A stretch of 64,000 nt of DNA from Candidatus Falkowbacteria bacterium RIFCSPLOWO2_12_FULL_45_13. GTDB lineage: Bacteria; Patescibacteriota; Patescibacteriia; Patescibacteriales; GWC2-42-12. The notes beneath the pieces are model-generated. The model was not told the origin of the DNA, ran no database searches, and saw only the letters and a list, made by a program, of their open reading frames with translations. Position numbers and translations under genes: made by a program. The stretch lies in contig MFFY01000061.1 of NCBI GenBank assembly GCA_001778055.1, positions 515 through 64,514 on the forward strand. The letters are read 5' to 3'. This document shows positions 1,815 to 55,397 of the stretch, in pieces (position 1 is the first letter of the stretch; each line of letters begins with the position of its first letter).

Positions 1815-2350
1815 AATAAACTACCTCGCAGCAAGCTGACGAGGTATTAACCCTCGAAAAGTCTTGGCTGATTGGTATGAATTTGTTCGTACTTTAAACC
1901 TTAATTTTGAACATACTGCTTGATAGCCTCTTCGCTTGCTGCTTTACCAACCGTGTTAATGTAATAACCTTTCGTCCAAAATTCACCGCCCCAAAGCAAT
2001 TTTCTGATTTCCGGCTTTACGCGAAATATTTCCCGAGCCGTGATGCTTTTGACTATTTTCGCCAAATTGGTGGGGCTGATCATCGGAACAGACTGAATTA
2101 GAAAATGAACATGGTTTTGGTCAACGCCGATTTCAACAAAATGTATGTCAAACCTTTTTTCAATCTCCAAACAAATCTTCTTAATCTCTTGGTCTGCACC
2201 GGCCACATCCCTAAATACATTTCTGCGATATTTGGCCGGACAAACCAAATGATATAGTAGCAACGACGAATTATGTGATTTTTTTATGTGTTCGGACATG
2301 TTTTCATTCTAACGTACCCGCCCCTCGAGGCAAGCCTCGGGGAAATCTAT
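1815..2350 (-). mobile_element. IS200/IS605-family insertion sequence (tnpA only) with subterminal hairpins
   Basis: A Y1/HUH transposase ORF is flanked by imperfect hairpins: tacctcg...cgaggta at ~1823-1846 and cccctcgagg...cctcgggg at ~2321-2342. This is typical of IS200-like ends. The element abuts the recJ start. Confidence 0.6.
1901..2299 (-). CDS. tnpA: IS200/IS605 family transposase TnpA (Y1 HUH)
   Basis: 132 aa. HUH motif HVHFLIQ, conserved YxxK-type C-terminal region, and a size typical of IS200 TnpA. Confidence 0.85.
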   Translation of the reverse strand: MSEHIKKSHNSSLLLYHLVCPAKYRRNVFRDVAGADQEIKKICLEIEKRFDIHFVEIGVDQNHVHFLIQSVPMISPTNLAKIVKSITAREIFRVKPEIRKLLWGGEFWTKGYYINTVGKAASEEAIKQYVQN

Positions 2351-11934: not shown

Positions 11935-13251
11935 TCATTTTAATTTTTGATTTTTGCATTTTAAATTTTCTTCAATCTCCATCAGCCTGTTATATTTCGC
12001 CAGCCTTTCTCCCCGCGACAGCGACCCGGCCTTAATGTAATCAGCCCCGACCGCCACGGCTAAATCAGCGATAAAGTCATCCGTAGTTTCGCCCGAGCGA
12101 TGCGAAACAATAATTTTATAATTATGCTTCTTGGCCAGTTTTACGCAGTCAACCGTTTCCGACAGGGTCCCGACCTGATTGGGTTTTATTAAAATAGCGT
12201 TAGCGGCGTTTTCTTTCAAGCCTCGCCTCAAGCGCTCCGGATTGGTGACGAACAAATCATCGCCGACCAGCATTACGTCCCGGCCAAGCTCTTTATTTAA
12301 TTTTTGCCAGCCGGCCCAATCGTCTTCAGCTAAACCGTCTTCAAGGTAAATTATCGGATACTTCCTAAACCATTCGTAATATAAGCCGGCTAAAGTAGCC
12401 GCGGTGTAACTGGCGCGATCCAGCTTAAAAACATACCTGCCGTTTCTCTGATTATAAAGTTGAGATGAGCCTACATCAATGCCTAAGGCTAAATCTGCCC
12501 CGGGTTTATAACCAGCTTTAATTGCGGCCGCCATAATTAATTCAATCGCCTGGATGCTGGAACTGATATCCGGCGCGTAGCCGCCTTCATTGCCCACATC
12601 CGTGTCATAGCCAGCTCTTTTTAAAACATCCCCTAAAGCATGAAAAATCTCCGCGCCCATTCTAACTTGTTCGGCAAAACTTCTTCTCCCCCCCCTGACA
12701 AGGAGGGCTGGGGGTGTTAAATAAGCCAGGGGAATTATCATAAATTCCTGAAAATCCAGGTTGGTATCGGCGTGCTTGCCGCCGTTAAAAATATTAAAAC
12801 ATGGAACAGGTAATTGGAAATTGGAAATTGGAAATTGGAAATTATTAGAGATATATTCATATAACTCCAGACCAGAAGCCAAGGCGCCGGCGCGGGCGCA
12901 AGCGAGCGACACGGGCAGGATCGCATTAGCGCCTAATTTACTTTTATTTTTTGTACCATCTAATTTTATCATGATATCATCAATCTCCGCCTGCTTGGTT
13001 ACTCCAGCTCCGATTAGCTTAGGCGCGATTTTGCTTTCAATATTTTTAATGGCATGCAAAACCCCCAAACCGCCGTATCTTTTAGCATCATTGTCCCGCA
13101 GTTCCACGGCTTCATGCGCGCCCGTAGACGCGCCCGCAGGCGCGCTGGCTTTTGCTTTAACGCCATTATCCAATAAAACCGTGGCTTCCACAGTGGGATT
13201 GCCGCGCGAATCTAAAATCTCACGAGTCGTTATTTTTTTTATTTTAGGCAT
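11935..13251 (-). CDS. eno: Enolase (phosphopyruvate hydratase)
   Basis: 438 aa. TTREILDSRGNPTVEA, SAPAGASTGAHEAVELRD, SHRSGETTD and the full enolase domain order. It also contains an in-frame 12-aa insertion and a 7-bp tandem repeat. Confidence 0.95.
   Translation of the reverse strand: MPKIKKITTREILDSRGNPTVEATVLLDNGVKAKASAPAGASTGAHEAVELRDNDAKRYGGLGVLHAIKNIESKIAPKLIGAGVTKQAEIDDIMIKLDGTKNKSKLGANAILPVSLACARAGALASGLELYEYISNNFQFPISNFQLPVPCFNIFNGGKHADTNLDFQEFMIIPLAYLTPPALLVRGGRRSFAEQVRMGAEIFHALGDVLKRAGYDTDVGNEGGYAPDISSSIQAIELIMAAAIKAGYKPGADLALGIDVGSSQLYNQRNGRYVFKLDRASYTAATLAGLYYEWFRKYPIIYLEDGLAEDDWAGWQKLNKELGRDVMLVGDDLFVTNPERLRRGLKENAANAILIKPNQVGTLSETVDCVKLAKKHNYKIIVSHRSGETTDDFIADLAVAVGADYIKAGSLSRGERLAKYNRLMEIEENLKCKNQKLK
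12686..12716. repeat. In-frame palindromic element (same family as 10483-10520) inside eno
   Basis: ctcccccccctgacaaggagggctgggggtg. It encodes the extra YLTPPALLVRGGRR relative to the canonical EFMIQPVGAKT...IRMG loop of enolase. Confidence 0.7.
12808..12844. repeat. Coding microsatellite: about 4.5 copies of a 7-bp unit (GGAAATT / AATTGGA) inside eno
   Basis: ggtaattggaaattggaaattggaaattggaaatta. It encodes NNFQFPISNFQ in the variable loop preceding the conserved LPVP. Confidence 0.85.
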
Positions 13252-18463: not shown

Positions 18464-18629
18464 ATAGAATAATTTAATAGTACTTACGCGCTCTCCAATA
18501 TTATCTAAAGTTAATAAAAATTGTTAATTTATGCCAACCAACTGTAATTACCCGCAAATCTACAAATCAGCTACGAATACTACCAATGCTATTCGTGATA
18601 TTCGTAGCTGATTTGTAGATTTGCGGGAG

Positions 18630-20056: not shown

Positions 20057-20194
20057 ATAAGACGAATTATATTTACAACTATACTATAACACAGTTATCC
20101 ATTAAATTACAAACCGGCATTTCTTGCAACCAGAAACTCGCAACTCATAACTCAAAATGTAAAAAACCATAAACTCGGCGACCGTGGACCTGGG

Positions 20195-20785
20195 TTACGT
20201 TTTTTTGGTTAAGAGCTGCGGGTTGTGAGATCTGCTGAATTCGCAGCCGCAATAATTCTGCCGATATAAACCAAGCTGGCGCGATAGCGCGGCGGATTTC
20301 TTAAAGCCGTCTTGTTTTTTTAAATCTTGGGTGAGAAACTTAAGCTGAAAATTCGCCGCCGCGCCTTGGCCGATTTTATTGACGGCCAAAGCGTCCTTAT
20401 GCGGACTAGTAGTCAGGGTGGTAATTAAATACTCGCGGTTTAATTTTTTCGCCACGGCCGCGGCTTTATCCAACCTGAATTTATAGCAGATCAGGCAACG
20501 CTGGCCCCGTTCCGGATCGTTTTCGCGTCCGCGCACCGCTTCAAGCCATCGATTATGATCGTACGCGCCTTCAATTAATTTCAAATTAAATTGTTCAGCA
20601 ATTTTTTCCGCCTCGGCCAGCCGTTTATTATATTCCTCTTCCGGCCAAATATTAGGATTATAAAAAAACAGCATTATATCATAATCCTGTTTGAGAAGCT
20701 GACTGGCGTAAACGCCACAACCGACGCAGCAAATATGGAGCAACAGGCTAGATTTCTGGTTTAGCGGATTTAACGCTTGTCTCAT
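20195..20785 (-). CDS. queH: Epoxyqueuosine reductase QueH (DUF208)
   Basis: 196 aa. LLLHICCVGCG near the N-terminus and YRQNYCGCEFS near the C-terminus are QueH cysteine motifs. Confidence 0.85.
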   Translation of the reverse strand: MRQALNPLNQKSSLLLHICCVGCGVYASQLLKQDYDIMLFFYNPNIWPEEEYNKRLAEAEKIAEQFNLKLIEGAYDHNRWLEAVRGRENDPERGQRCLICYKFRLDKAAAVAKKLNREYLITTLTTSPHKDALAVNKIGQGAAANFQLKFLTQDLKKQDGFKKSAALSRQLGLYRQNYCGCEFSRSHNPQLLTKKT

Positions 20786-24140: not shown

Positions 24141-24214
24141 TGGTCGGGCCACTGGGAATTGAACCCAGTCTACACGCACCCGAAGCGTGTGTACTACCGG
24201 TATACGATGGCCCG
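24141..24214 (-). tRNA. tRNA-Pro (anticodon CGG)
   Basis: Hand fold of the reverse complement: acceptor CGGGCCA/TGGCCCG, D arm GTAT-ACCGGTA-GTAC, anticodon stem CACGC/GCGTG with loop TTCGGGT, T arm CTGGG-TTCAATT-CCCAG, then A-CCA. 74 nt. Confidence 0.85.
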
Positions 24215-24285
24215 TAGAAATTTTAGATTTGCGATTTCTGATTTTAGATTTTAAAATTGCTAAATCGTAAATCGAAAATATTTTT

Positions 24286-24359
24286 TGGTGGACTCACCGG
24301 GAATCGGACCCGGACCTCGGCAATGCGAATGCCGCGTAATACCGTTTTACTATGAGCCC
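24286..24359 (-). tRNA. tRNA-Ala (anticodon CGC) with G3:U70 identity pair
   Basis: Reverse complement gives GGGCTCA TA GTAA-AACGGTA-TTAC G CGGCA-TTCGCAT-TGCCG AGGT CCGGG-TCCGATT-CCCGG TGAGTCC A CCA. Acceptor position 3 is a G:T pair. 74 nt. Confidence 0.8.
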
Positions 24360-24401
24360 CTTTTAAATTTACGAATTACGATTTTCGATTTACGATTTAA
24401 A

Positions 24402-25771: not shown

Positions 25772-27340
25772 TTATTTCACGTAAAATTCTTTTTTTATTT
25801 CTTCATCATCTTCCATTTTTTTCTCTTCAATTTTTTCTTTGGCTTTTTCCCGTAATTCTTTTAAATCCATTTTATTTAGCTCCAAGCTCCGCGTCTCCAA
25901 ATATTTTTGATCATTCAATTTTTGATCTTCAATCACTTCCGACAGCAAGACGTCCAAAATCGCCCCAATTTTCGGCCCAGGCGCTATACCCAACAGTTTC
26001 ATCAAATCATCGCCATTGATGGCGAGCATTTTTACCGACACCGCATCATGCCTGACCTTTTCCATCATATATTCCAGATGCCTTAACTTATACGGCTTGG
26101 CTTTGGGCACGCCCGAGCCCAGACGATCGGCGACGCGCAGGGCAATCAAATCGGCCAGATTCTCTTCGCCGACTTTTCTAACCAGGCGCCTGACCGAGCT
26201 CTCGGTCACTTCGCCCACATTATAATAAAACATATGGTTTCTGACCAAGCTGGTCACTTTTTCAATATCCTGGCCGGCAAACTTTAACCGGCGCATGATT
26301 TTTTCCGTCACCCTGGCGCCGATGATGTCATGGTTATAAAAAGTCGCCTCCTGCCCCGAACTGATCCGCTTGGTTTGCGGCTTGGCAATGTCATGCAAAA
26401 GCGAGGCCAGTTTAACCTGCCACTTTTTACTGGGAGTATGCTTCAGAGATAGCACACTATGGTTAAAAACCGTATAAATATGATGCCGATTCTGCGCCAC
26501 ACCCACGCCGCGCTCCAGTTCCGGCATCAGATATTGAAGCAATTTAAATTCATGAAGCATCATGATGCCTTCATAGGCTTTATCCGTTTCTAAAATTTTA
26601 ATAAGCTCGTCGCGCAAGCGTTCGCCGGAAATAAATTTAATACTACCGGCCATTTTAACTATGCCTCTCTCGGTTTTCGGCTCAAGCATAAATCCTAATT
26701 GGCAGGCCAGGCGCACCGCGCGCATCATGCGCAAAGCGTCCTCTTTAAACCGGTCTTCCGGCTCGCCCACGGCGCGGATTACTTTCTTTTTCAAATCCTT
26801 CGCGCCGCCAAACAAATCAATAAGCTCGTAACTCGCATCTCGTAACTCATAACTCTTTTTATCCCGCATTTGAGTTACGGGTTGTGAGTTGTGAGTTATG
26901 AGCCGCAACGCCATGGCATTAACCGTAAAATCCCTGCGGCTCAAATCTTTTTCCAGACTGTCCTCAAACCGTACCTGGTCCGGATGCCGGCGGTCGCTAT
27001 AACCTTGTTCAGAACGATAAGTTGTTACCTCGACAACGTCTTCCGCTTCTCCGTTAGCCGGCTTTACCGGCACTAAAACCGTACCAAAGTCATTTTTATA
27101 TTTGCCGTCAGGAAAAATTTCCAAAATTTTTTCCGGCCGCGCGTTGGTGGTTACGTCCCAATCTTTCGGCTGCCGTGCCATTAACAAATCACGCACGCAA
27201 CCGCCCACGATATAGGCTTCAAAACCGGCTTGCTCCAGTTTTTCCACGATATTTTTAATATAGTCGGGAGTTTGCATTATAGCAAAAACGGCACTATCAT
27301 TAGCGCCTAAAATTATTATGATTACAGCTAAAATATACAA
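25772..27340 (-). CDS. cca: CCA-adding tRNA nucleotidyltransferase / poly(A) polymerase family protein with C-terminal HD domain
   Basis: 522 aa. GGCVRDLLM and DWD (NTase motifs), RRDFTVNAMAL, and a C-terminal HD region. It carries an in-frame palindromic insertion. Confidence 0.85.
   Translation of the reverse strand: MYILAVIIIILGANDSAVFAIMQTPDYIKNIVEKLEQAGFEAYIVGGCVRDLLMARQPKDWDVTTNARPEKILEIFPDGKYKNDFGTVLVPVKPANGEAEDVVEVTTYRSEQGYSDRRHPDQVRFEDSLEKDLSRRDFTVNAMALRLITHNSQPVTQMRDKKSYELRDASYELIDLFGGAKDLKKKVIRAVGEPEDRFKEDALRMMRAVRLACQLGFMLEPKTERGIVKMAGSIKFISGERLRDELIKILETDKAYEGIMMLHEFKLLQYLMPELERGVGVAQNRHHIYTVFNHSVLSLKHTPSKKWQVKLASLLHDIAKPQTKRISSGQEATFYNHDIIGARVTEKIMRRLKFAGQDIEKVTSLVRNHMFYYNVGEVTESSVRRLVRKVGEENLADLIALRVADRLGSGVPKAKPYKLRHLEYMMEKVRHDAVSVKMLAINGDDLMKLLGIAPGPKIGAILDVLLSEVIEDQKLNDQKYLETRSLELNKMDLKELREKAKEKIEEKKMEDDEEIKKEFYVK
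26825..26902. repeat. In-frame palindromic element (GAGTTATGAG / CTCATAACTC family) inside cca
   Basis: ctcgtaactcgcatctcgtaactcataactc...gagttacgggttgtgagttgtgagttatgag. It encodes RLITHNSQPVTQMRDKKSYELRDASYEL between the conserved NAMAL and IDLFGG. An intergenic copy lies at 49264-49356. Confidence 0.7.
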
Positions 27341-27545: not shown

Positions 27546-29501
27546 CTAACTTCTCTTTTTGTAGGTGGTATATAAAACGGTTTTTTCCAATTTCCCCTGC
27601 TTTTTTAGCCAACTTAAAGCCCCGATTGCTTCGTCGTTCTCGTGCGCTCTTCTTATTTTGCTAGCGCCGTCAATTTTATACAAAGCGGCCAATCTTTTTT
27701 TTCTTATTTCGGCCGTGGTGGGAATCGGCTGGCCGCCACCGCCGATACAACCGTCCGGGCAGGCCATAACTTCAATATAATCAAAATCTTTTAATTTATC
27801 TAAGATCGGTTGAATACTGCCAATGCCGTTTACCACCGCCACTCTGACTTTTTTTCCGCCCATCTCCAAATTTGCCGTTTTTACTCCTTCCTGACCGCGG
27901 ACATCTTTAAATTCAACTCTCTGGATCTCGGAATCGCCAAACCTGATTTTAGCTTCTAGGCCCAAATCACGACATACCCGGTCTTGGGCCGTGGCCATCA
28001 AATAAGCGGCGGTCCTCAGGGCTGATTCCATTACGCCTCCCGTGGCGCCGTAGATCGCGCCGGCTCCGCTCGCCGTCCCAAGTGGATTATCCGCCCGTTC
28101 CGCTTTCAAACTTTTAAAATCTATCTTATTTTTCTTGATCAACCAGGCTAATTCGCGGGTAGTTAGGCAATAATCAATCGGCCAATCGCCTCTGATCTTA
28201 AGTTCTTTGCGGCTAGACTCAAACTTCTTGGCCGTACAAGGCATGATTGACACGACCACGATGTTCTTTGGCTTGATTTTTCGGCCCGAGGCCGATCCGC
28301 CTTGGGCGGACATTTTCTCGGCCCAATAAGTTTTAATAATGCCGGCGCTATGCATCTGCGGACTGCGCGCCGTGGTCATGTTAGGAATTAAGTCGGGACG
28401 GAAAAATTCCACATATTTTATCCAGGCCGGGCAACAGGAGGTAAACATGGGCAAATTAGAAATTGGCGTGACCTTACCAAATTTCAAATTTCTAATTTCT
28501 AGTTTCTTGTCTTCATGGTTTAATAACCTCTCTCTTATTTTTAATCTCTCAATTAACTCTTCCGCCTCAACAATGGTGGTAACGTCGGCGCCGAAATTAA
28601 CGTCGAAAACGTAGGCGAAACCCAATTTTTTCAAAGCCGCCACCACCTGGCCGGTCATGACCCTTCCGGTTTCAACGCCAAATTCTTCGCCAATGCTGAC
28701 CCTAATAGAAGGGGCTATCTGAGCGACCAATACCTCGGACTTGTTTTTAAGCGCTTTCTCCACGAGGTGCCAATCGGCCTGCTCCTGCGCCGCCCCGACC
28801 GGACAATGCAAGGCGCACTGGCCGCAATAGATGCAATCGACCTTTCTCCTGTCCGCTTTGGCGAAAGCGAAAACGCCCTTTTCCGTTACCGGTACAATTT
28901 CCTGAGCCACGCCCTTACCCCTTAGTTCCAGATAATTTATTTTCTGCAAATCATTGCAGGCCTCCAGGCAATTCCGGCAATCAATGCATTGGCTAGAGTC
29001 AATTTCCACGGCATTGGCGAATTTATATGTTTGCCTCTTGCCTTTACGATCTTTAAATCTGCAAATTTCAATTTTATACCTTTCGGCCAATTCCAGCAGC
29101 TTGCAGTTAACCCGCCAAATGCAAGTCGGGCATTTTTCAATATGCTCGGCGAATATCAATTCAATATTTAAATTGCGCGAACGTTTGACTCTGGTCGTAT
29201 CGGTTTTTATTTCCATGCCGGCTTTGACTTTTGTATCGCATGCCGTCACCAGCCTGGCCTGCGCCGACTTCGGCGCCTTCATCCCGAAGTCAGGCCGAAG
29301 AGAGCTCGGTTGAACCGAGTCCGCCGAATACGCCACCTCTACCACGCAAATCCGGCAATTGGCTTTAACCGAAAAATCAGGATGATAACAGAGATTAGGC
29401 AACATCATGCCGTTATCTTGAGCCACCCGCATGATAGTCGCGCCTTCATCGCAGATGATTTCTTTGCCGTCTAAATATATTTTAACTTTTTTATCAGTCA
29501 T
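27546..29501 (-). CDS. hydA: [FeFe]-hydrogenase catalytic subunit (HydA/HndD-like) with N-terminal 2Fe-2S and multiple 4Fe-4S domains
   Basis: 651 aa. H-cluster motifs L1 TSCCPAW, L2 MPCTAKKFE, L3 EVMACPDGCIGGGGQP. N-terminal NuoG-like 2Fe-2S domain (CRICVVEV) and ferredoxin-type CxxCxxCxxxCP motifs. Confidence 0.9.
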   Translation of the reverse strand: MTDKKVKIYLDGKEIICDEGATIMRVAQDNGMMLPNLCYHPDFSVKANCRICVVEVAYSADSVQPSSLRPDFGMKAPKSAQARLVTACDTKVKAGMEIKTDTTRVKRSRNLNIELIFAEHIEKCPTCIWRVNCKLLELAERYKIEICRFKDRKGKRQTYKFANAVEIDSSQCIDCRNCLEACNDLQKINYLELRGKGVAQEIVPVTEKGVFAFAKADRRKVDCIYCGQCALHCPVGAAQEQADWHLVEKALKNKSEVLVAQIAPSIRVSIGEEFGVETGRVMTGQVVAALKKLGFAYVFDVNFGADVTTIVEAEELIERLKIRERLLNHEDKKLEIRNLKFGKVTPISNLPMFTSCCPAWIKYVEFFRPDLIPNMTTARSPQMHSAGIIKTYWAEKMSAQGGSASGRKIKPKNIVVVSIMPCTAKKFESSRKELKIRGDWPIDYCLTTRELAWLIKKNKIDFKSLKAERADNPLGTASGAGAIYGATGGVMESALRTAAYLMATAQDRVCRDLGLEAKIRFGDSEIQRVEFKDVRGQEGVKTANLEMGGKKVRVAVVNGIGSIQPILDKLKDFDYIEVMACPDGCIGGGGQPIPTTAEIRKKRLAALYKIDGASKIRRAHENDEAIGALSWLKKQGKLEKTVLYTTYKKRS

Positions 29502-47893: not shown

Positions 47894-49243
47894 CTACTTC
47901 TTTATCACCACCTCAATCCGGTCAACCAGGTTCGGCATCTTTTTCAAAAAGGCGGGGAAAAACTTTACTTCATAACCCGCCACTTCAGGCAGACTATTTA
48001 AATAGGCTTTTAGCTGCTCATTATTCAAACCAGCCAAATTATTTTTCTTGATTATTTTCGCGTTGTCTTTAAGCGTCACTTTAGCGACAAAATCAACGTC
48101 AACCGTGGCCGTGCCTTGGCTTAAATTTATGCCGCCTAAATGATACGCTGTATCCGCGCGTCTTAATTCAACAATTTCTTTGTCATCAGCCAAGGCATTA
48201 ATTAGCTTGGCCCGGACCTGACTATAAATATCATTATCCTTAAAAGCCGCTACTGTAATCTTGGTTTTTATTTTAATGGTAAATTTATCTTTTTCCTCTC
48301 CGACCTTGCCTTGCACTTCCTGGCTAATCGAATTGTTGTCAACTTCAATAATCGACTGTTCATATTCCTGATAAGCTTGGCTAATTTCTTTTTTAGCGTT
48401 GGTTAATAAACTTAACTTTAAACCGCTAACAGCCTTATCAATATCGCTTTGCGTGATTATATATTTAACCTTTTCCTGATAGGCCATTGGCGACTGACTC
48501 TGAGCGTAAATTTTATCTTGTAACCCGGCCCAAAGTCCGGGAATGGTAAATTTGCTCGGACCGATGGCCATATCAGGCTTGGCTTCATCAGCGTAAACTT
48601 CGGCCACTACCCGGCCCCCGGCCGGCACATTAACGGTATTTTTTAATCTAAACAATTTATTGTCCTGCGACAGTAGCCTAGTGGTGGCCACTAGGGGCTG
48701 ATTCTTCAGATAATCATTTATAATCGTCACCTGGCCCGTAACTTCTTCGCCCAAAATTTTTTTGCCGGTAGCGGTGAAGGTTTGCGATTGCTCCAGCGGC
48801 ACCTGCCTGACGATGCCCAGAATTTCTCCTTGAGCCATGCCGGCCGTACTATCCATATCAACTATGGTGACGTTTAAACTATCAGTAACTTTCTCTTGAG
48901 TCGGAATAATAATCAAAGTCGCCTTGGCAAAGCCTAAATATAACACGGCTAAAACCAAAATAACGGTTAAGGCGATGAAACTGCCGGCAATCTTAAAATA
49001 AATATTTTTCGCCTCGCTCTTTTTCGCGGCCGTTAAATTTTCTTTAATTTTATATCCAGCTCTTGGCATCGACTGAATAGTATTAAAATTTTCATTTATT
49101 TTAAAAGGCGGTTTGTCCGCTTTTCTGACGCCGATGGCGACTCCTGCTTTGGTTGATTTTCTAGATGTTCTTTGCTTGGATTTTTTTACGGCTGCTTGTG
49201 GCGGAACTAAAAAATTTGTTTCTGGCATATAAATTTCGCGCAA
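47894..49243 (-). CDS. Hypothetical membrane-anchored extracytoplasmic protein
   Basis: 449 aa. Basic N-terminus, a single TM helix (IAGSFIALTVILVLAVLYLGF), and a large domain with no recognisable family. Confidence 0.5.
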   Translation of the reverse strand: MREIYMPETNFLVPPQAAVKKSKQRTSRKSTKAGVAIGVRKADKPPFKINENFNTIQSMPRAGYKIKENLTAAKKSEAKNIYFKIAGSFIALTVILVLAVLYLGFAKATLIIIPTQEKVTDSLNVTIVDMDSTAGMAQGEILGIVRQVPLEQSQTFTATGKKILGEEVTGQVTIINDYLKNQPLVATTRLLSQDNKLFRLKNTVNVPAGGRVVAEVYADEAKPDMAIGPSKFTIPGLWAGLQDKIYAQSQSPMAYQEKVKYIITQSDIDKAVSGLKLSLLTNAKKEISQAYQEYEQSIIEVDNNSISQEVQGKVGEEKDKFTIKIKTKITVAAFKDNDIYSQVRAKLINALADDKEIVELRRADTAYHLGGINLSQGTATVDVDFVAKVTLKDNAKIIKKNNLAGLNNEQLKAYLNSLPEVAGYEVKFFPAFLKKMPNLVDRIEVVIKK

Positions 49244-49263
49244 CCTGCCTGCCGATAGGCAGG

Positions 49264-49356
49264 CTCATAACTCGTAGCTCGCAACTCTTTTACCTAATAT
49301 TTTGAGTTATGAGCTATGGGTTATGGGTTATGAGTTACGAGTTGTGAGTTATGAGA
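49264..49356. repeat. Intergenic copy of the GAGTTATGAG / CTCATAACTC palindromic element (same family as the cca insert)
   Basis: ctcataactcgtagctcgcaactc...gagttatgagctatgggttatgggttatgagttacgagttgtgagttatgag, between the hypothetical gene and the dnaE stop. Confidence 0.75.
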
Positions 49357-49390
49357 TTAATATTATTTTACCAGCTTTCAGCCATTCTGT

Positions 49391-55008: not shown

Positions 55009-55210
55009 TTAGAATAAGAAACAATAATCAAGAAACAATAACCGAAACCAAGCAAAACATCCAAATTTCAAATTATTATTGTTTGTTGCTTGTATCTTGG
55101 TTATTGGTTATTTTTCACATTTATATTATACCCCATTTCCGCCCTCTTTGACAAATTTATAAAAAAAATTTATTATTATATCAGAATAAAACTAGCTTGA
55201 GCTGGTTTTT

Positions 55211-55397
55211 ATATAGAGATGGTTACAAAACTATTTCGTAGCGAAATTTAGATATTTTTCGGCCAGGCGAGGAAAACCAGCGAAATGATTTGAACCGTAA
55301 TAGTATTACGGTGAAAATCATTTCGCGCCAGTTTGACGAAGCCTGGCCGAAAAATAGCAAATTGCAGCAAAAATAGTTTTGTAACCATCTCATATAA
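55211..55397. repeat. Long (about 185 bp) near-perfect hairpin palindrome immediately upstream of tRNA-Leu
   Basis: Nested arms gagatggttacaaaactattt / aaatagttttgtaaccatctc (21 bp, perfect), atttttcggccaggc / gcctggccgaaaaat, cagcgaaatgattt / aaatcatttcgcgc, and the central palindrome ccgtaatagtattacgg. Confidence 0.8.

Follow-up and report, generated by a model that had tools for sequence, protein, structure and literature searches.

Inverted heptanucleotide arrays in frame within the CCA-adding enzyme gene of a Patescibacteria genome, at a loop that holds many unrelated repeats across the clade

The stretch of DNA considered here, a window of 64 kb (87% coding) from Candidatus Falkowbacteria bacterium RIFCSPLOWO2_12_FULL_45_13, carries within its cca gene, which codes for a CCA-adding enzyme (Cca), a hairpin made of two inverted arrays of the heptanucleotide GAGTTRY. 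This element is one family among many arrays of period 7 in this Patescibacteria lineage, and the loop of Cca in which it lies is, in related organisms, a site of repeated and unrelated insertions. We understand it, with a probability of about 0.55, as a dispersed hairpin repeat, made or kept by replication slippage, template switching and gene conversion, that is tolerated as a translated passenger. Two features make it worth emphasizing: the behaviour of the loop as a hotspot, and a conservation of synonymous sites that is limited to the element, the latter being the main point that is left unexplained. In what follows L-numbers designate related loci or contigs and P-numbers orthologous Cca proteins, in a numbering internal to this analysis.

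The element in its host gene

The gene and the parts of the element are as follows.

25772 to 27277, minus strand: cca, class-II CCA-adding enzyme with an HD domain, probable ATG at 27277 (mechanical open reading frame (ORF) 25772 to 27340, minus strand).
26824 to 26903, no strand assigned: whole GAGTTRY-family hairpin (inverted repeat), 80 nt, with arms of 32 nt that are 78% complementary and a loop of 16 nt.
26824 to 26855, plus strand: left arm, about 4.4 tandem CTCRYAA units, giving SYELRDASYE on the coding (minus) strand.
26856 to 26871, plus strand: loop, 16 nt, T-rich, TTTTTATCCCGCATTT, giving (Q)MRDKK on the coding strand.
26872 to 26903, plus strand: right arm, GAGTTAC GGGTTGT GAGTTGT GAGTTAT GAG, giving LITHNSQPVTQ on the coding strand.
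Peptide stretch across the insert: LITHNSQPVTQMRDKKSYELRDASYE.

An earlier, sequence-only reading of the window had placed an inverted repeat of about 80 bp inside cca, and so it is; what that reading described as a palindrome is a genuine inverted repeat, though it missed that the arms are two inverted arrays of a tandem 7-nt unit, a kind of repeat of which the window has many families. In the left arm the units are CTCGTAA CTCGCAT CTCGTAA CTCATAA CTC, and Tandem Repeats Finder (TRF) recovers period-7 arrays in both arms (4.4 copies at 26825-26855, 3.1 copies at 26881-26902). Sequences matching GAGTTRYGAGTT with at most one mismatch occur 16 times in the window against 0.47 expected, a number that none of 100 shuffles reached, and all 16 are confined to three loci. 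Folded as single-stranded DNA, the cca element is more stable than shuffled controls (z = -4.0 for the plus strand, -3.1 for the minus strand); folded as RNA, the hairpin is stronger in the antisense transcript (-44.3 kcal/mol) than in the messenger (-36.2 kcal/mol). Only three tRNAs reach the gathering score when the window is searched with the Rfam covariance models, the element itself finding no match.

The identity of the host gene is clear. Its product has the Pfam domains PF01743, PF12627, PF01966 and PF13735, arranged as the PolyA_pol head of a class-II enzyme (motifs GGxVRD, DxD, RRD and EDxxR) followed by the RNA-binding neck and body; it has many homologues at 70-86% identity in Patescibacteria, annotated as CCA tRNA nucleotidyltransferase, and phmmer aligns it with the solved enzyme 6IBP (E = 2e-48), with all motifs matching on either side of the insert. 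In the protein collection it is P0001, in a version that starts at a TTG codon, while the ATG-start version is without an exact match there. The tRNA-Pro and tRNA-Ala genes of the window (24141-24359) both encode their own 3' CCA, from which we suggest that the role of Cca in this organism may mainly be one of repair, which would possibly relax the constraint on the enzyme.

The alignment with 6IBP is continuous from motif A to the neck, save for a gap of 22 residues between RRDFTxNAMA and IDxFGG, where solved CCA enzymes have some six residues between the equivalents of NAMAL and IDLFGG. In an AlphaFold 2 (AF2) model made from 104 orthologues, residues 151-169, which are flanked by strands at 142-147 and 171-177, have a predicted local distance difference test (pLDDT) score below 50. 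We therefore place the insert in the head domain at the tip of the β-hairpin that joins motif B (RRDFTxNA) to motif C (DxFGG), where it would probably form a flexible surface extension of about 22 residues. The 28 extra residues that had been proposed between NAMAL and IDLFGG are thus in frame at the right place and too many, close orthologues having 8-13 residues there.

How a hairpin of this sort can be read as protein is visible in its codons. On the coding strand the triplets of one arm face those of the other as codon and anticodon (CTC-GAG, ATA-TAC, ACT-AGT, etc.), and two of the mismatches of the stem, TCA facing CGA and CAA facing TTA, lie exactly where perfect complements would be the stops TGA and TAA; in L001 a GC unit variant at both of these stop-prone places makes the stem at once free of stops and perfectly paired. 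Two things keep the frame open: the length of the element, 78 nt (26825-26902, 26 codons without a stop, a multiple of 3 being what the sequence-only reading had proposed to check), and unit variants that remove the stops which perfect complementarity would create. In all 80 metagenomic orthologues the loop, with many unrelated inserts, is read through in frame without a stop. Together with the stop-avoiding mismatches of the stem, this makes it likely that the insert is translated.

The same observations bear on the idea that we are dealing with an intervening sequence, akin to an intron or an intein and removed before or after translation, or else with an artefact of assembly. Patescibacteria do carry insertions in their rRNA genes, and a hairpin could in principle serve as a processing site. 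Yet an open frame is not needed in a segment that is removed, while every unrelated insert at this site is in frame without stops and the mismatches of the stem avoid them; neither intein nor intron motifs were found in the insert, nor, as said, an Rfam match. As for an artefact, the contigs that match the window at 99.9% identity derive from groundwater metagenomes, the sequence of the insert is identical in four independent assemblies of the strain at that identity, and the insert is present in diverged species. We regard this family of explanations as very improbable.

A hypervariable loop

Among the 104 orthologues the loop is at most 13 residues long in 34 and above 20 in 65; many orthologues have 8-13 residues there and others 17-40. 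More distant orthologues (62-64% identity) have loops of 8-10 residues, like enzymes of the Bacillus type, and for this reason we take the short loop to be ancestral and the insert to be derived. When the homologues are aligned, a comparison that had been called for, the segment is missing from orthologues as close as 81-87% identity (P0007 and P0012 for example) as well as from the solved enzymes. In its closest carriers it is not spelled by non-palindromic DNA, the case that would have spoken against the sequence-only reading: L001, L213 and L215 share the palindromic sequence, and only in L214 has the left arm decayed.

The GAGTTRY element is one of many occupants of this loop, which across the clade holds at least eight different heptamer arrays or GC-rich palindromes. 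The 67 distinct loop alleles fall into these types.

Short: 29 alleles.
Heptamer array with hairpin (GAGTTRY, CGCATAA, CCGATTG and CAAATGT types): 5 alleles.
Heptamer array, hairpin weak or none: 7 alleles.
GC-rich palindrome (CCCCTCTCC...GGAGAGGGG): 10 alleles.
Long, decayed: 16 alleles.

Here the sequence-only reading, which was right in recognizing an in-frame palindromic insert, was too narrow, since it missed that the loop is a hypervariable site with many unrelated inserts. Occupancy changes quickly. P0010, which is filled, and P0040, which is empty, are 98% identical outside the loop; P0002 and P0019 are 95% identical elsewhere and have unrelated inserts; P0056/P0087 and P0080/P0088, each pair 94% identical, are discordant in insert type. 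The relatedness of inserts and of genes was judged here from masked nearest-neighbour identities, the neighbour-joining tree of the 104 Cca sequences being too star-like for a mapping of gains and losses. At the DNA level the filled and empty pair P0010/P0040 (L003 and L132, a repeat family other than GAGTTRY) shows that 33 nt of native loop were replaced by 84 nt, without target-site duplication and with the differences clustered in the immediate flanks of the loop. Insertion by cut-and-paste is therefore not supported in this pair, since native loop was replaced and nothing duplicated.

The families that fill the loop are also found elsewhere. Three further genomes have the family of their cca insert nearby, outside cca, and in L141 and L155 the families concerned, CGCATAA and GC-rich, are present in cca and again in intergenic copies close by on the same contig; that of L155 includes a 31-nt identical copy just downstream of cca.

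A lineage rich in heptamer arrays

It is in the general abundance of period-7 arrays that the most natural context for the element is found. Dozens of them, with differing units, are reported by TRF in the window, and segments that match themselves at a lag of 7 number 21, against 0-4 at other lags. The same holds for the related loci (78 non-redundant loci, 939 kb), with 166 lag-7 segments against 14-47 at other lags, so that period-7 arrays exceed other periods about 4- to 10-fold in the clade. In these 78 loci, 25 inverted pairs of heptamer arrays form hairpins; no shared A/T or G/C polarity of the 5' arm was seen among the 25 (15 versus 10). Most of the period-7 arrays of the window are intergenic or at gene ends, despite the high coding density, and in the spacer between the GAPDH and NuoF genes a heptamer hairpin is kept at the orthologous site while its unit differs from genome to genome.

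The GAGTTRY family itself has two other copies in the window, listed here with the only transposase gene found there.

49264 to 49357, no strand assigned: intergenic copy, with left arm 49264-49287 (3.4 units), 16-nt T-rich loop 49288-49303 and right arm 49304-49357 (7.6 units).
20133 to 20229, no strand assigned: third, degenerate copy, with left arm 20133-20153, a 52-nt loop and right arm at about 20208-20229; fold z about -2.
1901 to 2299, minus strand: IS200/IS605-family Y1 transposase gene (PF01797, E = 1.8e-32; NF033573, the IS200 model, 122.8 bits).

The first, announced as a longer copy at about 49264-49356, is indeed there, with asymmetric arms. It sits between the stop codon of dnaE (49391) and the start (49243) of a 449-aa ORF of unknown function, and folds as single-stranded DNA with z = -4.1 and -4.3; its unequal arms are what slippage would give. 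A GC-rich hairpin, CCTGCCTGCCGATAGGCAGGC, at 49240-49263, abuts it, and may be the "first" palindromic family of the earlier note or a terminator of dnaE. What had been taken for a half-site at about 20134-20158 is really a full, degenerate hairpin with a weaker fold. This third copy as a whole extends across the stop codon of queH (20195 to 20785, minus strand), and its right arm lies within the last codons and encodes the C-terminal tail of QueH, SHNPQLLTKKT*; the L001 orthologue ends CEFSRRA* and has no such tail. L001 and L143, for their part, have a single GAGTTRY arm in frame in prmC, encoding KLATRNSQPVT ahead of the IDVGTGSG motif. One and the same family is thus both free between genes and in frame within them, as had been claimed: at 49264-49357, in cca, in the tail of queH and, in L001 and L143, in prmC.

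A family dispersed in this way invites an explanation by transposition. The element would then be a non-autonomous mobile one, of the type of MITEs (miniature inverted-repeat transposable elements), of repetitive extragenic palindromic sequences and their paired form (REP/REPIN) or of palindrome-associated transposable elements (PATE), its hairpin being moved in trans by a transposase acting on single-stranded DNA (TnpA of IS200/IS605, or a REP-associated tyrosine transposase, RAYT), with the loop of Cca as a preferred target or one that is hit repeatedly. The copies of the window have the same arm order and T-rich loops of 16 nt in cca and in the dnaE spacer; they occupy non-orthologous sites, since the queH copy is lacking in L001 while prmC is occupied in L001 and L143; the 31-nt identical copy beside cca in L155 goes in the same direction, as do the discordance between insert type and gene tree and the very presence of a Y1 transposase gene in the window. 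On the other hand, no flanking direct repeat was found at any of the three window copies, where a target-site duplication had been suggested as a check, and termini are not conserved beyond the heptamer; with the replacement seen in the filled and empty pair, this speaks against a MITE. Copy length and unit number vary and arms are unequal. Copies in cca share a loop across lineages, but about half the likeness is lost when the loop in cca is compared with the intergenic one, which argues for a single origin at the site, and the change of units in concert that is described below is not expected from transposition. Within the 64 kb the only insertion sequence is this IS200, so that no transposase linked to the GAGTTRY copies was found there. 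It appears to be an ordinary IS200: short GC hairpins at 1823-1847 and 2321-2342 flank the gene (region 1815-2345) and are unrelated to GAGTTRY, no GAGTTRY copy flanks it, and its score with the RAYT model is 21.6 bits against a cut-off of 80, reasons for which this TnpA was rejected as the driver. Transposition is in our eyes the main rival explanation, though a rather unlikely one.

Arrays of guide-encoding repeats, either of CRISPR or of the tandem interspaced guide RNA (TIGR) systems reported in Patescibacteria (PMC12045711), were considered as well and rejected: the units abut without spacers, and no Tas or Cas gene is present among the 32 ORFs of the window that were scanned with Pfam (20 other ORFs being outside that scan).

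How the arrays may form and change

Comparison of related loci suggests how such hairpins are renewed. L137, L145, L158 and L159 have a common right half, ...EKEIIIDGEKYLLV, preceded by near-perfect left arrays of differing units (CAATTAA, GAATTAC, CAATTTT and GAATGTC), and (CGGATTT)x5 in L144 corresponds to (CAGATTT)x5 in L150, one base having changed in all five units. The units of an array thus evolve in concert, as slippage predicts. L213 has a perfect stem of 20 bp in a register shifted by 14 nt, or two units, where the native flank GCGGCTC pairs with a changed unit, GAGCCGC; by analogy with described cases, this clustered and templated change would be the signature of intramolecular template switching.

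We may take these cases as a starting point to understand the whole. Heptamer arrays would arise and change by replication slippage, which would add, remove or alter their units in concert, and would be made palindromic, or be kept so, by template switching within the molecule or by gene conversion between the arms; recombination would swap loop alleles between lineages, and selection would retain only those copies that fall in permissive surface loops or at gene ends and leave frames open. The Cca insert would then be a passenger, tolerated at a permissive hairpin tip and most likely no adaptation of the enzyme. In the five carriers of the GAGTTRY insert in cca (the window, L001, L213, L214 and L215) the segment is 90 nt, of identical length, with related loops, and for this reason it seems to have a single origin at this site, not to have been inserted independently from the pool of copies of each genome.

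Possible constraint on the nucleotide sequence

Several observations weigh against so simple a picture of slippage and tolerance. The first concerns synonymous sites. Among the four lineages that keep the hairpin, synonymous divergence (pS) amounts to 0.11-0.33 within the insert and to 0.66-0.77 over the remainder of the gene (binomial P 3e-7 to 7e-5). Synonymous sites of the insert are thus conserved 3-6 times better than those of cca outside it, which a purely neutral passenger as old as the gene would not show. The arms diverge by 3-23% in these lineages and the loop by 0-31%, mostly 25-31%. Between the window and L001 the tract of low divergence coincides with the element (the insert is 96% similar); a simple recombination tract using the conserved flanks is not supported for this pair, as these differ right up to the ends of the element. 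L214 has lost the left arm and the hairpin and kept the sequence of the right arm, so that pairing alone is not what is conserved. Over the five carriers, 85% of cells are paired and two pairs have changed on both sides, a result met in 76 of 500 shuffles, so that covariation in this small set is not significant. Next, the decoupling of insert type from the gene tree could also reflect re-insertion at a specific site by some enzyme yet to be recognized. Lastly, the GAGTTRY unit is present in many phyla, hinting at something more than random slippage. The nucleotide sequence of the arms could have been shaped by constraint, by conversion from other copies or by a spread later than the divergence of the host genes.

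Another explanation is that the insert, or its nucleic acid, has a function, be it as a selected extension of the β-hairpin of Cca (in tRNA handling, in the binding of a partner or in the evasion of an inhibitor) or as a cis-acting motif of DNA or RNA within the ORF, for instance an array of binding sites for a protein that reads heptamers, or a regulatory hairpin. That synonymous sites of the arms are conserved in excess would fit, as would the preservation in all five carriers, even without pairing, of the right arm together with the peptide KSYELRD, and the persistence of heptamer hairpins with differing units in orthologous spacers, for instance between GAPDH and NuoF. For cold-shock proteins, the binding of a single heptamer each has been reported (PMC4679880). 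The peptide is a poor candidate in this respect. Non-synonymous divergence in the insert (0.04-0.21) is at or above that of its flanks (0.04-0.08), giving a pN/pS of 0.4-1.5, near neutral; the pLDDT of the stretch is below 50; and Cca works without it, since in some of its closest orthologues the insert is missing or replaced by an unrelated one. With presence and absence varying among near-identical orthologues, a role for the peptide is unlikely; one at the level of nucleic acid is conceivable. Against a function we may also count a hairpin that is stronger in the antisense RNA than in the messenger, a covariation that is not significant and the absence of an Rfam match. Protein and nucleic-acid forms taken jointly, we consider a function improbable.

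A bolder proposal would see in the heptamer-array hairpins actively propagated elements under sequence constraint, or arrays of binding sites, that are repeatedly installed or exchanged at specific loops of housekeeping proteins, of which the hairpin between motifs B and C of Cca and the loop before the LPMFTSCCP motif of a hydrogenase would be examples. We hold it to be improbable too, and if anything slightly more so. If true, it would amount to a natural diversification of loop cassettes, driven by an enzyme or a recombination pathway to be found, and would account for the synonymous conservation limited to the element, for the eight or more families in one loop and for different cassettes in near-identical orthologues.

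Other genes and neighbouring repeats

Cca is not alone in harbouring such inserts. A hydrogenase-like ORF ([FeFe]-hydrogenase/NuoG-like, 27546-29501, minus strand) has three lineage-specific in-frame inserts when compared with nine orthologues, and enolase (11935-13251, minus strand) has two lineage-specific in-frame repeat inserts.

29247 to 29342, minus strand: insert site in the hydrogenase-like protein, from the comparison of orthologues.
28443 to 28550, minus strand: insert site in the same protein, from the same comparison.
28266 to 28319, minus strand: insert site in the same protein, from the same comparison.

The hydrogenase-like inserts comprise a GC-rich nested hairpin, an AGAAATT heptamer hairpin and a twin mini-hairpin, TCCGCCcaaGGCGGA + TCGGCCtcgGGCCGA, encoding GGSASGR. 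At the site of the AGAAATT hairpin, L007 and L214 have GC-rich palindromes (of the PLLIRRGG type) instead, and the GGSASGR twin recurs at a second site in the orthologue of L004. In enolase the first insert (12798-12849), ISNNFQFPISNFQ, is an in-frame array, nearly perfect, of the type (TCCAATT)x4.6, and the second, LTPPALLVRGGRR, is of the GC-palindrome type. A HypF-like gene in L008 (2412-2681) contains a row of six heptamer arrays, among them AATTTTG, GGAAATT and GGAATTT, which are apparently in frame and in several cases perfect.

Repeats are also seen around tRNA genes. Inverted heptamer arrays stand on either side of the tRNA-Ala gene (24286-24359, minus strand): TAAATCG occupies 24261-24279, and its complement 24381-24399. 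Both are 19 nt long and they are 100% complementary, the right one being part of an ATTTACG array at 24367-24399; by pairing they might close a long stem around the tRNA, in the manner of a processing stem. Beside tRNA-Leu, a nested palindrome of about 185 bp (55209-55393) is found again, 96.8% identical, on another contig of the strain, where it occupies a different locus (L009, 59-244), and this contig departs from the gene order of the window at that very match; one is reminded of a MITE-like element or of the breakpoint of a rearrangement. A second dispersed palindrome family (AAATCTACAAATCAGCTACGAATA.../...TATTCGTAGCTGATTTGTAGATTT) has copies at 2366-2472 and 18551-18627, one of which adjoins the IS200 gene, and a perfect 16-nt inverted repeat, TGTCATTGCGAGGAGC / GCTCCTCGCAATGACA (2586-2601 / 2725-2740, 123 nt apart), lies in the spacer upstream of lepA.

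What such repeats may bring

The genomes of Patescibacteria are tiny and strongly streamlined, yet this lineage tolerates repeat hairpins in cca, enolase, the [FeFe]-hydrogenase-like gene, prmC and queH. Short genomic repeats thus reshape conserved proteins, much as the palindromic elements of Rickettsia do, and the dynamics of simple sequences may, outside Rickettsia, steadily supply conserved proteins with new surface loops and C-terminal tails. There are practical consequences: inserts of this kind inflate the apparent divergence of proteins and confuse the alignment of orthologues, structure prediction and strain typing, while they flag hypervariable sites prone to recombination, which can be used to track populations. 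Finally, an excess of synonymous conservation in a translated repeat offers a handle on an old question that heptanucleotide repeats pose in general, namely whether they are products of slippage or have a role at the level of nucleic acid.

Comparison with known systems

In the literature covered, nothing relevant was found on repeats that are in frame, palindromic or of 7 bp in Patescibacteria or the candidate phyla radiation (CPR), and in-frame repeat hairpins were nowhere described for Patescibacteria. Several known systems share some of their traits. Coding palindromes in mitochondrial genes of Nematomorpha (PMC6649704) are likewise long inverted repeats inside protein genes with both arms translated; they belong, however, to animal mitochondria, with near-perfect arms of up to 284 bp, and have neither heptamer substructure nor an intergenic family. 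The REP sequences, bacterial interspersed mosaic elements (BIMEs) and REPINs associated with RAYT transposases (PMC3733652) are short, dispersed, imperfect palindromes of high copy number, mostly extragenic. REPs differ in having a GTAG/CGTC head, 20-40 nt, no tandem heptamers, an extragenic position by definition and a clustering around the RAYT gene, whereas here CTCRYAA or GAGTTRY opens each arm, the length is 80-94 nt and no RAYT is found in the 64 kb examined. Template switching at replication is known to create and maintain hairpins (PMC8794818, and PMC8604942 for yeast coding sequences), through clustered templated changes that make an arm complementary to nearby sequence, a pattern that the 20-bp stem of L213 fits; it is a mutational mechanism and not a family of elements, and is not known to have been described with heptamer arrays or in Patescibacteria.

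The tandem arrays themselves have a clear counterpart in the short tandemly repeated repetitive (STRR-type) heptanucleotide sequences (TAACTGA) of cyanobacteria, Beggiatoaceae and Bacteroidetes, whose function is unknown and for which polymerase slippage has been proposed (PMC4679880); an excess of heptamers was noted by Mrazek et al. (2007), as summarised in the same paper. They share with the present arrays a 7-nt unit in few to many copies and a mostly intergenic position, and TAACTCA, as the unit reads on the other strand, is one base away from TAACTGA; here too the arrays are head-to-tail and over-represented with respect to other periods. They are mainly direct repeats upstream of start codons, with one inverted set in a Beggiatoa genome, while those described here are paired as hairpins and lie within the reading frames of housekeeping genes. 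When species-representative genomes across phyla (596 Gb) were scanned, GAGTTRY arrays were found in Nostoc, Bacteroidota, Planctomycetota, Chloroflexota and others (loci L013-L131), often as hairpins; by our own arithmetic about 70 single matches could arise by chance in such an amount of DNA, and the long arrays are beyond chance. In other phyla all of the inverted pairs, at least 25, are ordered (GAGTTRY)n-loop-(RYAACTC)n, and the copies of Patescibacteria are reversed.

Rickettsia palindromic elements (RPEs) were reportedly described by Ogata et al. in 2000. They are dispersed palindromes, both intergenic and in frame in conserved genes, translated as surface inserts that are compatible with the fold and present in several genes per genome (they are mentioned in PMC1779305 and PMC10969869). 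Our element resembles them in that its family is both intergenic and in frame, and in that its insert falls in a surface loop and is missing from orthologues. RPEs differ in being some 100-150 bp long with a family consensus, in having no tandem heptamers and in belonging to an intracellular alphaproteobacterium; nor are they reported as many families in one loop across orthologues, and the likeness would be functional, a homology of sequence being unlikely. By analogy, we may thus see in the Rickettsia palindromic elements the closest functional parallel to the hairpin in cca, and in the heptanucleotide repeats its closest structural one.

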